Below, piece after piece: positions 15,334 to 64,000 of a stretch of 64,000 nucleotides of DNA (the first letter of the stretch is position 1; every line of letters starts with the position of its first letter). This DNA comes from Nanobdellota archaeon (GTDB lineage Archaea; Nanobdellota; Nanobdellia; Pacearchaeales; GW2011-AR1): positions 105,697-169,696 of the forward strand of contig JAHJSH010000029.1 of NCBI GenBank assembly GCA_018830525.1, given 5' to 3'. Position numbers and translations under genes: made by a program. The notes beneath the pieces are model-generated. The model ran no database searches. It was given only the letters and a program-made list of their open reading frames with translations, and was not told the DNA's origin.

Positions 15334-16908
15334 CTAATCGTTCGCCTCCAACTGTCGTGCAATGTCTGCGAAAGCTGGTCGCGAGATTAAAACACCGGTT
15401 GTAATACCAATAATCGTTGTTATCGCGAAACCTGTTAGAAGTCCTCCTGAAGCCGCCCCGATGCCCATGAATCCAAGTACTCCTGTTAATGGAAGAAGTG
15501 CAACAGTTGTTGTTGCGAAGGCAGTAGCGATGATAAACAATGCCTTTTTGATTCTTTGTGCAATAGATTCTCTTTTATCTCGCGATTCATCTAAGATAAT
15601 TAACTGTGAATCTATACCTGTACCTATTGCGGCTATGATCCCGGCGATGGAAGGCAAATCTAGATTCCATCCAATTAGTGCAGCAACACCTAAGATAATT
15701 AGAACTTCTGAAAGAGAAACAGTAACTAACGCAAAAGAAACTTTAATCTTTCGGTATCTTATGAAAACCAAAAGGGAAACTGCGATAATCGCGAACAATC
15801 CTGCAATTAAAATTTGTTTAGTGAAAGTTTCCCCTAACGTCGGAGATATTTTGTCGATTTTTACTATTTCTAACTTGAATGGCAGAGATCCTGTTATTAG
15901 GATGGTCTGAAGTTTTTTCATTTCTGCTTCTGCGTCGTCAAGTGCTTCTTTTCTTGAAGGCCCGCTACCTGAACCAGAAATTAAAATCTGTGTTGCGATA
16001 TTTCCTTTTAGGTCTGCGCCGATGTTTAGGGAAGAGGTTAAAATTCCGTCAATATAGAAATCTAACTGTTTGCTTAGATAAGATCCATTGATAGATAAAT
16101 TGTCGGTGATGTCTGCGTGTCTTTGTGCTGCATCTCCGCTTAACGAGATTACAAATTGGAAGTTACAATATTCTCCGGAGCCATCACTTGAAGGATTACA
16201 TTCAGAGATATATGCATCTCTTCCAGTTCTTCCAACATGAGTAATGTCCTTCTCCCCCCCAATAAAGACTGTGTCGTTTCCGATCTTTGCTTCGAATTTT
16301 CCTTGCTCTTCGATTAATTTTTCTAAATCCTTCGGAGAAGATCCGGCTATTTCTATTCTCATGAGATTATCTCCTCGGGAATCTACTATCTTGAAGAATT
16401 TTACATCGGATAATCCGTAGACGTTTAGTCTCTGTTCGGAAACTGCAATAAGATCATTTAGCTGAGCGCTTGTCAATGGAACATCTGCTTTTACAAATGC
16501 TCTTGCCCCCCCTCGAAGATCAAGGCCTGTTTTTATCCTCGTCGAAGGAATTTCTTCTACAGAAATATCTTTAATTATTTCTCGTGTAAAAAGGTTGATG
16601 ATCTCAATGTCTTTTGTTTTTATAGTCAGTTTCTGTGTTTCATTTTCTTCTAAGTATGCCATCGGTTCCATGGCATTTGAGTAATCTTCTAAGGAATTAA
16701 TTATTTGTCCATTTATTTCCTGGATGACCATCCCGGTACGGAGCCCATTGTTGAATATTGACGAATTTGTTTCTACTGCGGAAACCGTAACCCCCTTCTC
16801 GAAAATCATTGGGGGAATTGAAAATATCGAGATGAGAGATAGTGCCACTGCAGCGAAAAGTATCCACATTCTAAAAGTTATTTTCATTGTTTTGTCTCCT
16901 CCTCGCAA
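15334..16908 (-). CDS. secD: Protein-export membrane protein SecD
   Basis: Large periplasmic domain plus C-terminal 6-TM SecD region; adjacent to secF. Confidence 0.85.
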   Translation of the reverse strand: MRGGDKTMKITFRMWILFAAVALSLISIFSIPPMIFEKGVTVSAVETNSSIFNNGLRTGMVIQEINGQIINSLEDYSNAMEPMAYLEENETQKLTIKTKDIEIINLFTREIIKDISVEEIPSTRIKTGLDLRGGARAFVKADVPLTSAQLNDLIAVSEQRLNVYGLSDVKFFKIVDSRGDNLMRIEIAGSSPKDLEKLIEEQGKFEAKIGNDTVFIGGEKDITHVGRTGRDAYISECNPSSDGSGEYCNFQFVISLSGDAAQRHADITDNLSINGSYLSKQLDFYIDGILTSSLNIGADLKGNIATQILISGSGSGPSRKEALDDAEAEMKKLQTILITGSLPFKLEIVKIDKISPTLGETFTKQILIAGLFAIIAVSLLVFIRYRKIKVSFALVTVSLSEVLIILGVAALIGWNLDLPSIAGIIAAIGTGIDSQLIILDESRDKRESIAQRIKKALFIIATAFATTTVALLPLTGVLGFMGIGAASGGLLTGFAITTIIGITTGVLISRPAFADIARQLEAND

Positions 16909-16944
16909 TTTGCATTCGTGTATTTTATTTTTTTGTTTTCCATT

Positions 16945-17970
16945 TTATTTTGTCGAAAGCGAATCGCTCGCATACCACTTAATTATTGATGCGTTGGTGA
17001 CCCATGTGTTGAAAAGATCAAAGCCTAGACCTATTAGTAATATGACAAATATTTGGTTTAGAACTGAGCCAAATGGATAGACGACGATTAGTGCTGCGGT
17101 GATTGCGATGATAGAAGTTAAGGTCATTGTTGTTCCAGTCTTGAAAGCTCCGAATAATTCTTGGTTTATTCCCCCGTGTTTTCTGTTAAGGATTCTAGAA
17201 GTTAGAAGGATATCTGTGTCTACCGAATAACCGATAAGCATAAGGAACGCGACGATTCCAGCGGTTGAAAGTTTGATTCCGAGAAGATTGACGACTGCAA
17301 GAGTCATCACGATGTCGGCGAAAGCAGAAAGCATAACTGCAAATGAGGGGACTGAGTTTTTGATATAGATTCTGATTAAAATGGCTGCGAATGCTAAAAA
17401 GATAATTCCTGCGAGGACCGGGTTGATTGTTAAGAAAAAGTTACCCATAAAGAATCCTAATAATACATTAAAGATTATTGTCCATGTTTTTACTTTCTTA
17501 CCTTTTGCAAAGATGAGGAAAACGACTGCCGCCATCCAGAAGAAAGCTAAAAGGACTGCGATAATAAGTTGTTTGTAAAAGTCTGCTGAGAGTGCTGCGC
17601 TTGTAGATTCTTCTGAAGAATTTTCTGATGTGAGTTCTTCTCCTAAAAATTCTTCTAATGCGACTTTAAGTGCTTCTGTTTGTTCTTCTCCAATTGTAAT
17701 TACAAGCTGTAATTGGTTTCCGGCATTATTGGAAATTGTTTGAACATTAAAATCGGTTAAGGTCTTTGATAACGCGGATTCTACGTCTACGGAGGAAATG
17801 TCTGTGAAAATTGAGATTGTGGTTCCGCCAGTCAATGAAACGTCTTTGTTAATGATGTCTCCAGTCTGTATATAGAATATCCCTATATATATTAGGGATA
17901 AAGCCAGGAGAACTGCTGGAATGATTAGAAGTTTCTTGTAATTCTCGTTGTACCACGGTTCGAAATTCAT
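16945..17970 (-). CDS. secF: Protein-export membrane protein SecF
   Basis: SecF-like TM topology and conserved C-terminal region. Confidence 0.85.
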   Translation of the reverse strand: MNFEPWYNENYKKLLIIPAVLLALSLIYIGIFYIQTGDIINKDVSLTGGTTISIFTDISSVDVESALSKTLTDFNVQTISNNAGNQLQLVITIGEEQTEALKVALEEFLGEELTSENSSEESTSAALSADFYKQLIIAVLLAFFWMAAVVFLIFAKGKKVKTWTIIFNVLLGFFMGNFFLTINPVLAGIIFLAFAAILIRIYIKNSVPSFAVMLSAFADIVMTLAVVNLLGIKLSTAGIVAFLMLIGYSVDTDILLTSRILNRKHGGINQELFGAFKTGTTMTLTSIIAITAALIVVYPFGSVLNQIFVILLIGLGFDLFNTWVTNASIIKWYASDSLSTK

Positions 17971-18061: not shown

Positions 18062-18394
18062 ATGCCTTATAAAGATCCTGAAAAGAAAAGAGAATGTAGG
18101 AGGAAATGGTATGCAAAGAATAAATCTTCTGAAAAGGCTCATGTTCAAAGGAGGAAGGGGAAGATTAAATTATGGTTTAAAAAATATAAGGCTTTCCTTA
18201 AATGTTCTAAGTGTGAGGAAAACCACCCAGCAACTATAGATTTCCATCATAAAATTGGCAAGAAAGAAAATAATATCTCAAAAATGGTGGCAGATGGATA
18301 TTCTATAGACCGAATAAAAATAGAATTAGAAAAATGTAATGTGCTTTGTGCAAATTGTCATAGAAAAGAACATTTCAAAAACAATAAACTTTAA
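18062..18394 (+). CDS. HNH endonuclease
   Basis: CSKCEE...HH...N...CANCH spacing, as in HNH nucleases; it abuts the tRNA locus. Confidence 0.55.
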   Translation: MPYKDPEKKRECRRKWYAKNKSSEKAHVQRRKGKIKLWFKKYKAFLKCSKCEENHPATIDFHHKIGKKENNISKMVADGYSIDRIKIELEKCNVLCANCHRKEHFKNNKL

Positions 18395-18477
18395 AACCTT
18401 AAATTAGGTGATTAAATCATGCGTGGGTAGTTTAGTTACGCGATTTTTAATCGCTTCAAAAACAACCTTCCCATAAT

Positions 18478-18564
18478 GCGTGGGTAGTTTAGTGGTAGAA
18501 TATTTGGCTTCCAAAATTTTACTGAAGAAACCAAATGACCGGGGTTCGAGTCCCCGCTCGCGCA
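18478..18564 (+). tRNA. tRNA-Gly(UCC) with a 16-nt intron in the anticodon loop
   Basis: The sequence folds into a cloverleaf by hand. The T-arm is CGGGG-UUCGAGU-CCCCG and the anticodon stem is UUUGG/CCAAA. The loop reads CUUCCA followed by a 16-nt insertion, and the intron GAAG pairs with the exon CUUC in the way a bulge-helix-bulge (BHB) splice motif does. Confidence 0.7.
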
Positions 18565-18821
18565 TTTTCCCTTTCCTTGCGGGATCTCTAAAGAATTTTC
18601 GTACAATTAGTCTTCAGGTCTTCGTGAGATAATAAATTGTCAAAGACCTAAAAACTCCCACAGTATTCCCTATTTTCTCTAGATGATTAAACTTAAAAAT
18701 GGGTTTCTAGTGATTAATTTGTGAGGGAATGCCTCCGCTACTCGCGATTTGCATTTGCTTAAGATATAGAATTTGGTTCGCAAAAGCGAATCACTCGGTC
18801 AAACTGTTTGACCAAAAGTAC

Positions 18822-18904
18822 GAGGGAATGCCGGAGCGGTCAAACGGGCCAGACTCAAGATCTGGTAGCTTATGCTTACGGGGGTTCGAATCCTCCTTCC
18901 CTCA
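18822..18904 (+). tRNA. tRNA-Leu(CAA)
   Basis: Anticodon arm CCAGA-CUCAAGA-UCUGG, a long variable arm, a T-arm with UUCGAAU loop and an acceptor GAGGGAA/UUCCCUC. Confidence 0.8.
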
Positions 18905-19050
18905 TAATGAGATTCGAACCCAAGGGTTCGCGCCGATTCTCGGCACAAGGACCTCTTCGAGGATCCTCCTTCCCTCATAATGAGATTCGAACCCAAGGGT
19001 TCGCGCCGATTCTCGGCACAAGGACCTCTTCGAGGATCCTCCTTCCCTCA
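18905..19050 (+). repeat. Two exact tandem copies of a 73-bp unit, each ending in the last 15 nt of tRNA-Leu(CAA)
   Basis: The 73-nt strings at 18905-18977 and 18978-19050 are identical; the unit ends with ATCCTCCTTCCCTCA. Confidence 0.85.
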
Positions 19051-19057
19051 TTATTCT

Positions 19058-19133
19058 GCCCGAGTAGCTCAGTTTGGATTAGAGCGATGCCCTCCTAAGG
19101 CATAGGTCGCAGGTTCAAGTCCTGTCTCGGGCG
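19058..19133 (+). tRNA. tRNA-Arg(CCU)
   Basis: Canonical 76-nt cloverleaf: GCCCGAG acceptor, GCUC-AGUUUGGAUUA-GAGC D-arm, CUCCUAA anticodon loop and a UUCAAGU T-loop. Confidence 0.85.
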
Positions 19134-19272
19134 TTTATTGAACCTGGCAGGTTCACCCGGTAGGTAGCTCTGGTGAGCTCGTCCATTTGACATCCCTCTG
19201 GTGAGCGAAGTCCTGTTCCGGGCGTTTTTCTTGAATCGTTAAGTTTATAAAATGAAAAATTGACTAGAATAT

Positions 19273-29384: not shown

Positions 29385-30092
29385 ATGGAAACCATCGAAA
29401 AAACACAAGAAAAAATTTCTGTTGTTAGTGATATCAATGTTAGTTTAGCTAATGCGATTCGAAGAAGTGTTAATGAGATCCCAGTTTTAGCGATTGATGA
29501 AGCAGATGTTTACAAGAATGATTCTGCACTCTATGATGAAATTATTGTCCATAGATTGGGGCTTATTCCATTGAAGAATCAAAAGATGAAGGTGGGGCAA
29601 GATATAGAGATGAAGTTTAAGGTTAAAGGAAAAGGGGAGAGAACAGAAGTTCTTTCTGGTGAGCTCGGAGATCAGGCAGTTTATCAAGATATGCCAATTG
29701 TTATTTTGAGCGAAGGTCAAGAAATTGAAATTGTTGCTCGAGCAAGGGCCGGACTTGGAATTAATCATGCGAAGTTTTCTCCGGGAATTCTTTTTTACAA
29801 ACATTTACCAAAGATTAAAATTTCGGGGGAGAGCGAGAAGCAAAGTGAACTTGCAGAGATTTATCCAGAAGCATTTGAAATGTTTGGTGAAAAATTGAAA
29901 GTTAAGAATGCTGCGGAATTTGATTTGGAAACCGCGGACCTTAAAGATTATCCGGGTATCGAGGTAAGTTATGGTGATGATTTGGTTTTGACTGTAGAGT
30001 CATGGGGCCAGATGGATGCAAAGGATGTTTTTGTAGAGGCGTGTAAGGCTTTGAAAGGAAATCTTTCTGAAGTCTCTAAAGTATTAAAGTAA
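29385..30092 (+). CDS. rpoD: DNA-directed RNA polymerase subunit D (Rpo3)
   Basis: Conserved position after S11 and an alpha/Rpb3-like dimerisation fold. Confidence 0.8.
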   Translation: METIEKTQEKISVVSDINVSLANAIRRSVNEIPVLAIDEADVYKNDSALYDEIIVHRLGLIPLKNQKMKVGQDIEMKFKVKGKGERTEVLSGELGDQAVYQDMPIVILSEGQEIEIVARARAGLGINHAKFSPGILFYKHLPKIKISGESEKQSELAEIYPEAFEMFGEKLKVKNAAEFDLETADLKDYPGIEVSYGDDLVLTVESWGQMDAKDVFVEACKALKGNLSEVSKVLK

Positions 30093-30125
30093 TGTGGGAA
30101 ATGCCTTCGCTTTTTCCGTCACTAC

Positions 30126-30331
30126 GGGGAAATGCCGGAGCTGTTCGCGATTTACATTCGCGGATGATCAGAAACCAAGTTGGCGCGAAAGCGAATCGCT
30201 CAGTCAAACGCCGTTTTCCCGCCCAAATGGGGAAATGCCGGAGCTGTTCGCGATTTACATTCGCGGATGATCAGAAACCAAGTTGGCGCGAAAGCGAATC
30301 GCTCAGTCAAACGCCGTTTTCCCGCCCAAAT
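30126..30331 (+). repeat. Two exact tandem copies of a 103-bp unit, each starting with the first 16 nt of the downstream tRNA-Leu
   Basis: 30126-30228 and 30229-30331 are identical. The unit is GGGGAAATGCCGGAGC + TTCGCGATTTACATTCGCGG hairpin + GCGAAAGCGAATCGCTCAGTCAAAC. A further 10-nt copy sits at 30096-30105. Confidence 0.85.
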
Positions 30332-30414
30332 GGGGAAATGCCGGAGCGGTCAAACGGGATACGTTAAGGTCGTATTGGCTTATGCCTACGGGGGTTCGAA
30401 TCCTCCTTTCCCCA
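30332..30414 (+). tRNA. tRNA-Leu (anticodon loop UUAAGGU; AAG, or UAA if the loop is drawn differently)
   Basis: Acceptor GGGGAAA/UUUCCCC, GGUCAAA D-loop, a long variable arm and a T-arm with UUCGAAU loop. The anticodon assignment is uncertain. Confidence 0.7.
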
Positions 30415-30437
30415 TGGAGAGAAATAGAAATAAGAAA

Positions 30438-30851
30438 ATGGAAACAAAAGTAAACAAAACAAGAATAGGGAAGAGTGAACCTAAGGGTTCTCACCTTCTA
30501 ATTTCGAAAAGCAAAATTGAAAGAAGGATGAAGCACAAAATGGATGCTTCTTTAGTTGAAACTATAATCTTGTTGAAGAAGACGAATCCAGTTGTTGCTA
30601 AGGAACTTGCAAGACCGAAGCGAAGATGGCCTGCAGTTAATTTGAAGGATATTGATATGGTTAAGGGAGATGTTTTAGTTGCTGGAAAAGTTTTGAGTGC
30701 GGGAGAATTGAGCGGGGCGAAAAAGATTGTTGCTTGGGCCGTTTCTGCAAAAGCTTTGGAAAAAATTAAGGAAGCTAAAGGAACTTTTATCACAGTTCAA
30801 GAAGAGATGAAGAAAAATCCTCAATTAAATGGTTATGATATTTTACGATGA
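30438..30851 (+). CDS. rpl18e: 50S ribosomal protein L18e
   Basis: Its position between rpoD and rpl13 and its basic composition. The ATG at 30438 is chosen because upstream in-frame sequence overlaps the tRNA and repeats. Confidence 0.65.
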   Translation: METKVNKTRIGKSEPKGSHLLISKSKIERRMKHKMDASLVETIILLKKTNPVVAKELARPKRRWPAVNLKDIDMVKGDVLVAGKVLSAGELSGAKKIVAWAVSAKALEKIKEAKGTFITVQEEMKKNPQLNGYDILR

Positions 30852-32027: not shown

Positions 32028-32561
32028 TTATTTCTTTCGAGGTCTCAAATAATCTTTTAACTTTCTTTGAACTGCGTAAAATATTTCTGGGCTGATGATT
32101 GCAGGGTGGTCGCCTTTGTGGATTCGACCGTCGAATTTTATTTCTCCAAGGTAAGTTCTATTTGTTAAAACTTTTTTTAATCCGTTGACAGAGAGTGAGA
32201 AATTTTTTGAGAGGGAATTAAGCGAGTAGTTTCTAGCGAGGAATGTTTTGAAGAGGGAGTGGACTCGAACGGCGTCTTTATTTGGAGTTAGGTTTCCGTT
32301 TACGACGTCATATCCTAGGGGGGGTCTTGTTTGGAGTCTTCCGATTGTTGCCATTTTTTGCATTCCAGATTTTTGTTTATCTCCAGAATGCTGGCCATAT
32401 TTCCTAAAGCTATCCAAAATCTTCCAATCAATTTGTTCGGCAACATAATCTTGGAAGTCATGGACTTTTTCTGGGGCGAATTTCGCGCAGATAGAACATA
32501 ACGGACTTCCAAAAAGGATCACTTCTTTTTTCTCTTGGTAGCCACATTTTTTGCATGCCAT
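32028..32561 (-). pseudogene. Serine-recombinase remnant: 'recombinase' domain fused to an N-terminal zinc ribbon, catalytic resolvase domain missing
   Basis: NRTYLGE...GDHPAIISPEIFYAVQ matches the large-serine-recombinase recombinase domain. There is no catalytic Ser domain. Confidence 0.45.
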
Positions 32562-38470: not shown

Positions 38471-39106
<636 letters not shown>

Positions 39107-41133: not shown

Positions 41134-41141
41134 CACTCATA

Positions 41142-41188
41142 CCCGAATCGAACGGGGATGCCCCGAAGGGCCGCGGGTTCGAGCCGCC
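41142..41188 (-). repeat. Partial copy (anticodon arm to T-arm, 47 nt) of the adjacent tRNA-Ser; att-site-like
   Basis: 45 of 47 nt are identical to tRNA-Ser positions about 27-72, and the copy diverges at the acceptor. Confidence 0.8.
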
Positions 41189-41216
41189 ACTCTCAAAATT
41201 TGCGTTTCGTTAAAGA

Positions 41217-41297
41217 CGCCTGTACCCCGAATCGAACGGGGATGCCCCGAAGGGCCGCGGGTTCGAGCCGCGTGCGATACCATTACGCGATACAGGC
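41217..41297 (-). tRNA. tRNA-Ser(CGA)
   Basis: Minus strand: GCCUGUA acceptor, CGCGG-CUCGAAC-CCGCG anticodon arm, long variable arm GCCCUUCGGGGCAU, T-arm CCCCG-UUCGAUU-CGGGG and discriminator G. Confidence 0.8.
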
Positions 41298-41395
41298 ACA
41301 TGCTTAAAGCGAATTTTTTGGCAATACCAATTATGCGATACGAGCAACTTATTTAGTTATATTAATAGAAAAGAGATCTTATTAAAATTATGGAA

Positions 41396-42299: not shown

Positions 42300-42740
42300 G
42301 ACCCTATGGTTGCGTATGGAAAGATTTATAAAAGTTTTTAGGGATTTTTGAATTTTATTTTATAATTTTTATTTATAAATATTTATATTATATATTATAT
42401 ATATTATATTATATACTATTAGTATATCTATATTTCAATTTAGTATATTTTAGTATAACTGTATTTCAATTTAGTATATTTTAGTATAACCTTTTTTAGA
42501 AAAGTGGGGGTGGTGATAAAAATATTTAATATTATTTTTTATTTCCTTTGGAGGGGAAATAAGGGGGTCAGAGGATATTGCTCTTAAATTGATCTATCGA
42601 GGGGGGGTTTTTGTTTTTTTGTGATGATTTTTGTTTTTTTGGATGTTATTACTTCTAGATGAAATGGTGGTGGTGAGGGTATGATTTCCAGTATATGAAA
42701 GTTTAAATAGTTCAAAGTTTGGGGTTATTTATGGGTGTAA
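42300..42740. other. Putative chromosomal replication origin (oriC) upstream of orc1/cdc6
   Basis: A very AT-rich (ATATT)n tract, a 29-bp tandem direct repeat x2 (42431-42459, 42462-42490), a palindromic ORB-like ATTTCCTTTGGAGGGGAAAT + G-string (42541-42570), and AGTGGKGGTGGTGA x2. Gene order oriC-cdc6-polD follows, as in Euryarchaeota. Confidence 0.55.
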
Positions 42741-63763: not shown

Positions 63764-64000
63764 ATATTATTGAAGGAGATATTTTTTATAAATCTATTGG
63801 CCTAGAAAATCTCCCTGTAGGTGATCTGGTGATCTAAGGTTTTCTCTTACTCGCAATTTGCATCTAGAGATATTTATTTTAATCTAGAAGCGAATTGCTC
63901 GGCTTCATGCTTCATTTAATGTAATCGGCTTCGTCGTAGGGGGATTATTAGTATGTCTTGAATCATAGAAATGTATTTAAATGAAATGTTTTTAGTTCAA

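Follow-up and report, generated by a model that had tools for sequence, protein, structure and literature searches.

E, a palindromic element family tied to tRNA genes of DPANN archaea and found within duplicated tRNA gene ends

How archaeal tRNA genes gain introns at odd positions, and how they come to be split, has been debated for about 20 years. Prior evidence on intron gain and gene fragmentation comes from few loci, namely the intron "transposition" among Thermoproteales tRNAs (Fujishima et al. 2010, as cited in a passage of PMC4390854) and one Caldiarchaeum locus, that of tRNA-Thr, for which an integration/recombination model of tRNA gene disruption was put forward (PMC3293823). Casposons, described as "large DNA transposons", also target tRNA genes, integrating at the T-loop/3' end of tRNA-Pro with a 15-bp duplication (PMC5137440). 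Here, we describe E, a family of imperfect palindromes of 48-73 nucleotides (nt) that is common in DPANN archaea and tied to their tRNA genes. It is analysed from a 64,000-nt stretch of a low-GC (31-41%) DPANN archaeon (contig JAHJSH010000029.1, positions 105,697 to 169,696), called the window hereafter; other contigs and loci are cited by L numbers.

Directly upstream of tRNA-Leu(AAG), Tandem Repeats Finder (TRF) delimits an array at 30126-30347 with a period of 103, 2.2 copies and 100% identity. The sequence agrees, which confirms a preliminary description of this DNA reporting two exact 103-bp tandem units before this tRNA, each opening with its nt 1-16. Each unit consists of GGGGAAATGCCGGAGC (tRNA nt 1-16), TGT, a palindromic core of 57 nt, A, GTCAAAC (with which the tRNA-Leu D-loop continues) and a 19-nt spacer. 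In unit 1, the stump lies at 30126-30141, the E core at 30145-30201, GTCAAAC at 30203-30209 and the spacer at 30210-30228; the E core of unit 2 is at 30248-30304. A 10-nt copy of the tRNA 5' end, noted earlier at about 30096, was found in degenerate form as GGGAAATGCC at 30097-30106. The stump that contains it resembles the GCC-TyCGCT stumps of Leu(CAA) units, and is probably an older eroded unit or the original gene start. The features of this locus are as follows.

30096-30125, + strand: degenerate tRNA-Leu 5' stump (GGGAAATGCC TTCGCT ... GTCAC) without palindrome, starting 4 nt past the rpoD stop (sequence).
30126-30228, + strand: 103-bp unit 1 (TRF, sequence; unit also present in L001 and L002).
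30229-30331, + strand: 103-bp unit 2, identical to unit 1 (TRF; not in two other assemblies of the organism).
30332-30414 (Rfam) or 30331-30415 (ARAGORN), + strand: tRNA-Leu(AAG), intact.

The "bipartite motif" of the preliminary description is present as described, but has to be read differently, its halves being the two arms of one palindromic element and not separate motifs. The consensus of E is yTRy-TCGCAATTTGCATTTCGCAAA ... AT-rich centre ... TTTGCTCAAAGCGAATTGCTC-r. Searching for the pattern TCGCRATTTRCA-N20-50-GCGAATYRCTC returned five matches in the window, against none in 100 shuffles, and matches in at least 118 metagenome stretches; among the matches listed, 98 distinct E copies (48-73 nt) were retained once chance matches in high-GC contigs had been removed. 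Across the outer helix, positions that mirror each other are paired in 93-100% of these 98 copies, and the irregularities of the helix are themselves conserved (one T·G and one A·A pair, besides two TC/TC 2x2 loops, which would read GA/GA on the opposite strand). E copies or variants occur in metagenome-assembled genomes (MAGs) labelled Woesearchaeota (L005), Pacearchaeota (L003) and Nanoarchaeota (L013). The pattern had no match in 2.9 million viral contigs, and a viral origin of E was rejected on this ground. Rfam recognized only tRNAs and 5S rRNA, at gathering thresholds over the whole window and at permissive E-values in two tRNA regions. A C/D-box or H/ACA small RNA was also rejected, as inspection by eye found neither C or D boxes nor a pseudouridylation pocket in E. 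Full-text literature searches for a precedent returned no description of E.

The association with tRNA genes is strong. Among the matches listed, 47 of the 95 distinct copies in low-GC loci lie within 100 nt of a tRNA detected by ARAGORN, while a randomly placed 60-nt element would do so at 6.8% of positions; some seemingly lone copies also adjoin tRNA ends that ARAGORN missed (for example in L024). The neighbouring tRNAs cover about twenty amino-acid specificities, and E is found on either side of them and in both orientations. There, it typically interrupts an extra, truncated tRNA copy, which is a 5' stump when upstream of the intact gene and a 3' stump, the more frequent case, when downstream. 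The order on the 3' side is: intact tRNA, a trailer of 7-60 nt, a short palindrome, E, and the rest of the T-arm to the 3' end with the trailer repeated. The palindrome starts with the T-arm 5' strand and loop in reverse complement and continues with 8-12 nt of the strand itself. On the 5' side, nt 1-16 (up to 1-55) are followed by E, a few further tRNA nucleotides joined to their own reverse complement (GGTCAAAC-TG-TTTGACC) and, past a spacer, the intact gene. Insertion points are located in the D-loop (16/17), at 26/27, in the anticodon stem and in the T-arm (nt 49-65), and 1-4 nt of the loop are missing, not duplicated, at the E site.

These duplications are polar. At loci with the E pattern, among the matches listed, the 5' part of the tRNA is repeated upstream in 14 of 99 cases (reversed control: 1 of 101) and the 3' part downstream in 41 of 101 (reversed control: 3 of 99). 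The earlier claim that duplications are systematically 5' is thus wrong, 3' duplications being about three times as frequent. They occur in the window too, as a tandem at 18890-19051, after tRNA-Arg at 19208-19224, and at 41134-41187, a copy of part of tRNA-Ser. Direct repeats of at least 12 nt flank E in 27 of 82 cases, versus 5 of 316 control positions. In flank alignments read by eye, most 3' cases show a distal match that extends at least as far as the tRNA end. The outer ends of 5' duplications fall at tRNA position +1, or at most 2 nt from it, in most of the cases inspected, which may reflect a link to transcript ends. Copies that bear E vary in extent, from short stumps up to full-length genes placed in tandem with the intact gene (L005, L059, L060, L066 and L076).

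Comparisons between relatives, which the preliminary description had called for, revealed empty and filled sites at both tRNA-Gly and tRNA-Leu(AAG). The first case concerns tRNA-Gly, whose synteny with an upstream open reading frame (ORF) carrying an HNH motif is kept in L057 and L064, along with a shared upstream flank. In these two loci, the intact tRNA-Gly starts at the exact position of the 16-nt stump of the window. As L064 and L057 thus give the empty site, the window tRNA-Gly has gained 57 bp after nt 16, of which 41 nt are new and the other 16 repeat nt 1-16. At tRNA-Leu(AAG), relatives with 86-90% RpoD identity show a plain rpoD-tRNA-L18e arrangement, without any unit, in the 10 contigs that reach the tRNA (11 were fetched and one ends earlier). 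Among 11 more distant relatives, six (L006, L007, L008, L011, L014 and L015) have no unit there, while L003 has two 3' units, L005 a downstream E-bearing pseudo-tRNA-Leu, L009 a 3' unit only, and L013 units on both sides. As relatives differ in both the presence and the position of units, these are gained and lost quickly and are dispensable at this gene. Also bearing on mobility, the E subfamily that shares the centre of the tRNA-Leu 5' unit (TTTGCTyAAGATAGAAAATA...TTCGCAAAA) interrupts a tRNA-Val 3' stump in L093.

E is also found as an intron. In L083 (tRNA-His GUG) and L065, it occupies the anticodon loop, and no other copy of the tRNA was found on either contig. A strict search detects a motif of the bulge-helix-bulge (BHB) type at the canonical position 37/38 in both genes, where h measures 5-6 bp, H 4 bp and h' 2-3 bp. 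The last nucleotides of E itself (GCGA/CGAA) serve as the 3' strand of the central helix by pairing with nt 32-35, and the predicted splicing yields 72-nt tRNAs in which the anticodon loop has 7 nt. It is possible that neither gene is fully functional, as the L083 acceptor stem contains two U·U pairs and the anticodon of L065 (UGC) does not fit its acceptor stem. The window differs in this respect: its E copies lie in stumps of 16-26 nt beside intact genes, and the strict BHB scan of its three tRNA regions gave no more matches than shuffles, none of them at E borders. Two BHB matches with a 103-nt "intron" proved to be side-effects of the tandem repeat. A BHB is taken here as two 3-nt bulges with 4 bp between them.

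The reading that we favour, with a probability of roughly 0.55, is that E is a mobile tRNA-targeting insertion or intron-like element, which inserts with a gene-regenerating duplication of its target and may later be amplified in tandem. At tRNA-Leu(AAG), E would have entered the D-loop after nt 16, and insertion would have been coupled to a direct duplication running from the insertion point to the nearer gene end (here nt 1-16). The intact gene would thereby be regenerated on the inner side, with the original gene end left as a stump outside E, and a few tRNA nucleotides (GTCAAAC) plus a short, locally templated palindrome would come to lie between E and the regenerated gene. On the 3' side, a mirror process would produce the succession of intact tRNA, trailer, palindrome, T-arm piece, E, and rest of the T-arm with trailer. 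We infer that the duplication arises at insertion and not through later rescue, and that a selective filter would then operate, survivors being those events that regenerate an intact gene or can be spliced. That only duplications reaching the gene end leave a working tRNA would account for the clustering of sites in the D-loop and T-arm. The anticodon loop would be the exception, as the terminal nucleotides of E would complete a BHB there and E could be removed as an ordinary intron. Lastly, the direct repeats may allow unequal recombination or slippage, leading to tandem copies (one in two assemblies, two here). Arrays comparable to that of the window are present in unrelated contigs (L070 with 117 bp x3.4; L128 with 65 bp x2.3, 97% identical; L003 with two 3' units that differ from each other), so that a real tandem amplification is plausible.

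Several points weigh against this reading. E has not been connected with any transposase, integrase or reverse transcriptase, an autonomous partner not having been sought systematically. Duplications vary from 16 to 72 nt and 1-4 loop nt are lost, which fits no known transposase chemistry. The palindrome beside E is templated from an uninterrupted tRNA arm (L117, L132), so that a simple staggered-cut model fails. About 40% of the E copies among the matches listed have no detected tRNA within 200 nt, and the frequencies obtained from metagenome loci are biased, because these loci were chosen by the E pattern. The 5' unit of tRNA-Leu(CAA/UAG) is conserved about as well as the tRNA itself across six contigs whose flanks are unalignable, suggesting constraint rather than junk. 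Moreover, the architecture may reflect a host process and not E, since other insert families occupy the equivalent position. Finally, it could be an artefact of assembly that the two 103-bp units are exactly identical. Staggered cuts, hairpin opening, snap-back and mini-circle recombination were each considered and rejected as mechanisms, as none gives a variable duplication together with the loss of 1-4 nt and a palindrome copied from the uninterrupted arm.

The stumps might instead be attachment (att) duplications, traces of plasmids or viruses that had entered tRNA genes by integration and were later almost wholly deleted. E would then be what survives of one end, or a copy of attP that bears an intron, in line with the Caldiarchaeum model; the paper behind that model explicitly proposes that an attP with an intron recombines with an attB that lacks one (PMC3293823). 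The polar direct repeats of tRNA sequence at the borders (11-72 nt), with 5' parts upstream or 3' parts downstream of a reconstituted gene, are what att recombination gives, the new gene copy replaces the old one in a nested tRNA-Ser described below, and an ORF with a Recombinase domain lies 1.6 kb from tRNA-Leu(AAG). However, merely 41-190 nt separate stump and gene, with no ORF in between, and the inspected loci contain neither integrase, whole or in remnants, nor cargo. The repeat is not contiguous either: the tRNA copy is interrupted by E and continues beyond it, no overlap region is duplicated, and the insertion points are spread over nt 16-65 instead of sharing a single crossover core. 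In addition, the duplication includes up to 60 nt of host trailer (L110), which is not expected of attP, and the lack of E in viral contigs counts against such a source. We thus regard an att origin as very doubtful. When the preliminary description raised "5'-targeting integration scars", it was right about the polarity of duplications; the anatomy, with its short gap, E inside the tRNA copy and no integrase-bearing element, does not agree.

A different proposal is that E and its flanks form a functional cis-element or small RNA of tRNA loci (a processing hairpin, a protein site, a terminator/promoter cassette or a co-transcribed small RNA), kept by selection and not by mobility. The conservation of the tRNA-Leu(CAA/UAG) 5' unit speaks for it: between the window and L128, about 3 of 70 positions differ in arms and stump (hand count), versus 6 of 83 in the tRNA, while flanks cannot be aligned. 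So do the non-Watson-Crick features of the arms, which are conserved down to the two GA/GA or UC/UC 2x2 loops, and the recurrence of two tandem 3' units after tRNA-Leu in four contigs. The preliminary description had also suggested folding the leaders, and tRNA-linked units do fold more stably than shuffles (z -1.8 to -3.6). A TTTTATA box precedes the stump in four of five relatives' contigs, so the tRNA-Leu(CAA/UAG) 5' unit is probably transcribed as a leader; the box starts at about -30 in one contig (hand count) and is outside the motif, L052 has TTTTATAC, and the window shows no clear box. But units are lacking at orthologous tRNA-Leu(AAG) genes in the closest and most other relatives, and are therefore dispensable. 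E also occurs in both orientations, on either side, at many positions, as an intron and away from tRNAs, Rfam offers no match, and copies at tRNA-Ser, at tRNA-Gly and at 30096 are decayed. Selection for such a function is, in our opinion, an unlikely explanation. The "novel promoter/leader architecture" suggested earlier finds no support, units being absent from the closest and 6 of 11 distant relatives, more often 3', present in both orientations and also used as an intron. An archaeal tRNA promoter (BRE/TATA about 26 nt upstream) has a fixed position and orientation and is present in orthologues; E has none of these properties, and on account of its position, orientation and phyletic pattern it was rejected as a promoter. 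By contrast, the third option of the preliminary description, a tRNA-associated repeat family, was the correct one, and this family can now be defined as E. As a separate observation, L052 carries, about 110-200 nt upstream of its tRNA-Leu(UAG) unit, a second and more degenerate 5' unit (GAGG GAATGCCTACGCTACTCATAATTCAC ... GCAAATCATTCGGTCAAAC), a stacking like that of 30096 and 30126 in the window.

Copy number at the window arrays has to be considered on its own. L001 (a 141-kb contig) and L002, both with identical RpoD, carry exactly one 103-bp unit each, as opposed to two in the window. Because both carry this unit, the stump with its 87-nt insert is reproducible; the second unit represents either a strain difference (polymorphic copy number) or an assembly effect. 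The second 103-bp unit, and likewise the second 73-bp unit after tRNA-Leu(CAA), could be an artefact of a de Bruijn loop around a short repeat. Consistent with this, both arrays are 100% identical at 2.2 copies, the two other assemblies have a single 103-bp unit, and short contigs of other assemblies break at these tRNA repeats. On the other hand, the arrays of L128, L070 and L003 come from independent assemblies and one of them is diverged, and the objection concerns copy number only, the single unit being reproducible. An artefact seems to us somewhat improbable, while deserving serious consideration.

A broader and more tentative interpretation can also be offered, although we would still place the balance of odds against it: E may be the archaeal counterpart of eukaryotic "introners", that is, an active non-autonomous element inserting specifically into DPANN tRNA genes, with duplication out to the transcript end and a templated palindrome. 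It would make introns where a BHB forms, and elsewhere gene fragments able to seed split tRNA genes. Such features would argue for break repair, or for synthesis templated by an R-loop or by RNA, and not for a classical transposase.

The same architecture recurs in the rest of the window, where ARAGORN and Rfam together identify five tRNA genes and one 5S rRNA. The five tRNAs form an unbiased sample, and every stump beside them abuts a hairpin insert: E, a mini-E (tRNA-Gly), degenerate E arms (tRNA-Ser), or one of two other families (3' of tRNA-Leu(CAA) and of tRNA-Arg). The corresponding features, with those that lie away from tRNA genes, are listed below.

16903-16969, + strand: E copy without recognisable tRNA fragment (pattern and sequence; not listed in the preliminary description).
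18421-18477, + strand: tRNA-Gly insertion footprint, 57 bp (sequence; empty-site comparison with L064 and L057).
18478-18564, + strand: tRNA-Gly(UCC), with intron (Rfam; missed in the ARAGORN default run).
18723-18821, + strand: tRNA-Leu(CAA) 5' unit (sequence; kept in L052, L057, L064, L109 and L128).
18822-18904, + strand: tRNA-Leu(CAA), intact (tRNA search).
18890-19051, + strand: tRNA-Leu(CAA) 3' units, 73 bp x2.2, exact tandem (TRF; diverged counterparts in L128, at 97% identity, L109 and L052).
19057-19134, + strand: tRNA-Arg(CCU), DNA anticodon CCT (tRNA search).
19139-19224, + strand: tRNA-Arg(CCT) 3' unit (sequence; insert related to those in L109 and L128).
41134-41345, - strand: nested tRNA-Ser, old gene split at nt 26/27 (ARAGORN, sequence; same structure in independent assembly L137).
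41215-41298, - strand: tRNA-Ser(CGA), intact (ARAGORN).
63851-63900, + strand: E copy without recognisable tRNA fragment (pattern and sequence; divergent intergenic region).

Recurrences of the layout at tRNA-Leu(CAA), tRNA-Gly and tRNA-Ser, and a tRNA-less copy near the window end, had all been noted beforehand, and each was recovered. The tRNA-Gly footprint comprises nt 1-16 (18421-18436), TAC, a centre-deleted mini-element GCGATTTTTAATCGC (18440-18454), a spacer and the regenerated gene (18478-18564). The tRNA-Leu(CAA) 5' unit is made of a stump (18723-18738, with nt 12-14 diverged), TAC, an E core (18742-18796), GGTCAAAC-TG-TTTGACC (18797-18813) and a spacer; the stretch 18797-18813 forms a 7-bp palindrome GGTCAAA/TTTGACC with centre CTG. 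On the 3' side of this tRNA, each 73-bp unit contains the last 15 nt of tRNA-Leu(CAA), the T-arm palindrome GAGATTCGAACCC-AA-GGGTTCG and a GC-rich hairpin insert of 32 nt that has no relation to E. An insert akin to it, at L009 4863-4952, is itself repeated (33 nt x2.7). The tRNA-Arg 3' unit has its palindrome at 19139-19155, an insert of a third family at 19156-19207 (CCCGGTAGGTAGCTCTGGTGAGCT...) and a 17-nt 3' stump AAGTCCTGTTCCGGGCG at 19208-19224, directly followed by a T-run terminator. The tRNA-less copy noted beforehand is the one at 63851-63900. That at 16903-16969 lies where two SecD/SecF-type genes of the minus strand meet; as it overlaps the final codons and stop of ORF 16945-17970, it may supply the C-terminus of this ORF.

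At tRNA-Ser, the old gene is visibly split and replaced. Its 5' part (41320-41345, the upstream copy noted beforehand) is followed by an E arm (41300-41319), the intact gene (41215-41298), a second E arm (41190-41212) and the old 3' part (41134-41187), a 54-nt copy of the 3' two-thirds of tRNA-Ser. The old 5' part has acceptor GCTCGTA and D-stem GCA/TGC, and the old 3' part ends in TATGAGT. These old halves pair with each other, and the old acceptor stem GCTCGTA matches that of the intact orthologue in L088; L137 differs by one substitution, in the old anticodon loop. Matches to the E arms are weak here (15-16 of 21 positions). A search of all loci with nhmmer, using separate arm models, found no second pair of arms more than 45 nt apart, which led us to reject E arms flanking a cargo tRNA as a general form and makes the window tRNA-Ser a single case with weak arms. 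Split tRNA genes, trans-splicing and permuted genes were rejected as well, since the stumps do not sum to one tRNA: the end of 5' stumps falls at nt 16-26 and the beginning of 3' stumps at nt 49-65, with an intact gene beside them in every case. Halves that complement each other exist at tRNA-Ser alone, where those of the old gene flank the new intact one.

As for gene content, RpoD (29385-30092) belongs to the cluster S13-S4-S11-RpoD-[tRNA-Leu]-L18e-L13-S9. NCBI assigns a protein identical to it to a Nanoarchaeota MAG, and relatives at 61-77% identity come from MAGs labelled Pacearchaeota, Woesearchaeota or Nanoarchaeota. Public gene calls contain a 218-aa ORF that begins at the rpoD stop, spans repeats and tRNA-Leu and extends into L18e (window 30092-30851; L001 3708-4364), the true L18e start probably being the ATG at 30438. 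Directly upstream of tRNA-Gly, ORF 18062-18394 (110 aa) has a clear HNH nuclease motif (CxxC ... DFHH ... CANCHRKEH), and its position beside this tRNA is kept in L057 and L064; Pfam gave no match for it and no link to E was established. ORF 32028-32561 (-), 177 aa, 1.6 kb from tRNA-Leu(AAG), has a Recombinase domain (PF07508, E = 3.5e-07) and is kept in L001 and L002; no link to the repeats or to E was established for it either. Other repeats of the window are a (TCTG)10 microsatellite at 38844-38884 and an AT-rich tandem repeat block at 42350-42490, with periods of 15-31 nt. Just past the window end, L016 1-3246 holds a gene for a 1965-residue ATPase-like protein, in which two intein and LAGLIDADG insertions are present. 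The + strand carries all five full E copies of the window as well as the degenerate arms at tRNA-Ser, and GC skew is positive along almost all 64 kb (slightly negative in 3 of 32 two-kb windows); a replication-strand bias of E is possible.

E is a candidate source of archaeal tRNA introns and gene fragments. With at least 100 copies available for comparison, in the form of empty and filled sites, stumps, nested genes, tandems and introns, and in abundant uncultured archaea, the family makes the origin of such introns and fragments testable by population metagenomics and simple biochemistry. In practice, E units also break assemblies at tRNA loci, mislead gene callers, as with the 218-aa ORF through tRNA-Leu, and can mimic prophage att sites.

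Set against known systems, E resembles archaeal BHB introns, and those of Thermoproteales in particular, in that related short sequences occupy many tRNA genes at canonical and non-canonical positions, and in that its removal from position 37/38 in L083 and L065 would restore a normal tRNA. It differs from them because most copies lie in truncated extra genes, with no BHB above chance, and because E is a long palindrome with conserved arms that duplicates gene ends and also occurs outside tRNAs. Integration by SSV/pNOB8-type archaeal plasmids and viruses at tRNA genes and the Caldiarchaeum model likewise involve a reconstituted tRNA beside a direct repeat of its 5' or 3' part, as well as intron gain and gene fragments within a short evolutionary time; E loci, however, have inserts of 41-87 nt without integrase or cargo, variable break points, a duplicated host trailer, and E inside the repeated tRNA segment. 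With miniature inverted-repeat transposable elements (MITEs), repetitive extragenic palindromes and bacterial interspersed mosaic elements (REP/BIME), and PATE, the family shares a small size (48-73 nt), the absence of coding sequence, multiple copies (at least 100), imperfect inverted-repeat arms (93-100% pairing), a variable centre and a conserved flanking tetranucleotide (yTRy / RYAR). It is set apart from these by its strong tRNA targeting, by the lack of an identified cognate transposase, and by target duplications of 16-72 nt, with 1-4 nt lost, instead of a fixed length. Casposons span 8-20 kb, carry their own genes and use one site with a fixed 15-bp duplication, whereas E measures about 60 nt, duplicates 16-72 nt and uses many sites. 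Eukaryotic Introner elements (PMC11282704) also form non-autonomous inverted-repeat families whose copies become introns when host splicing removes them, but they rely on the spliceosome, while excision of E would depend on a protein endonuclease and a BHB, and E targets tRNAs and remains mostly unspliced. The nearest precedents are intron "transposition" in Thermoproteales, the Caldiarchaeum model and casposon integration; E shares features with each of the three and lacks defining features of each.

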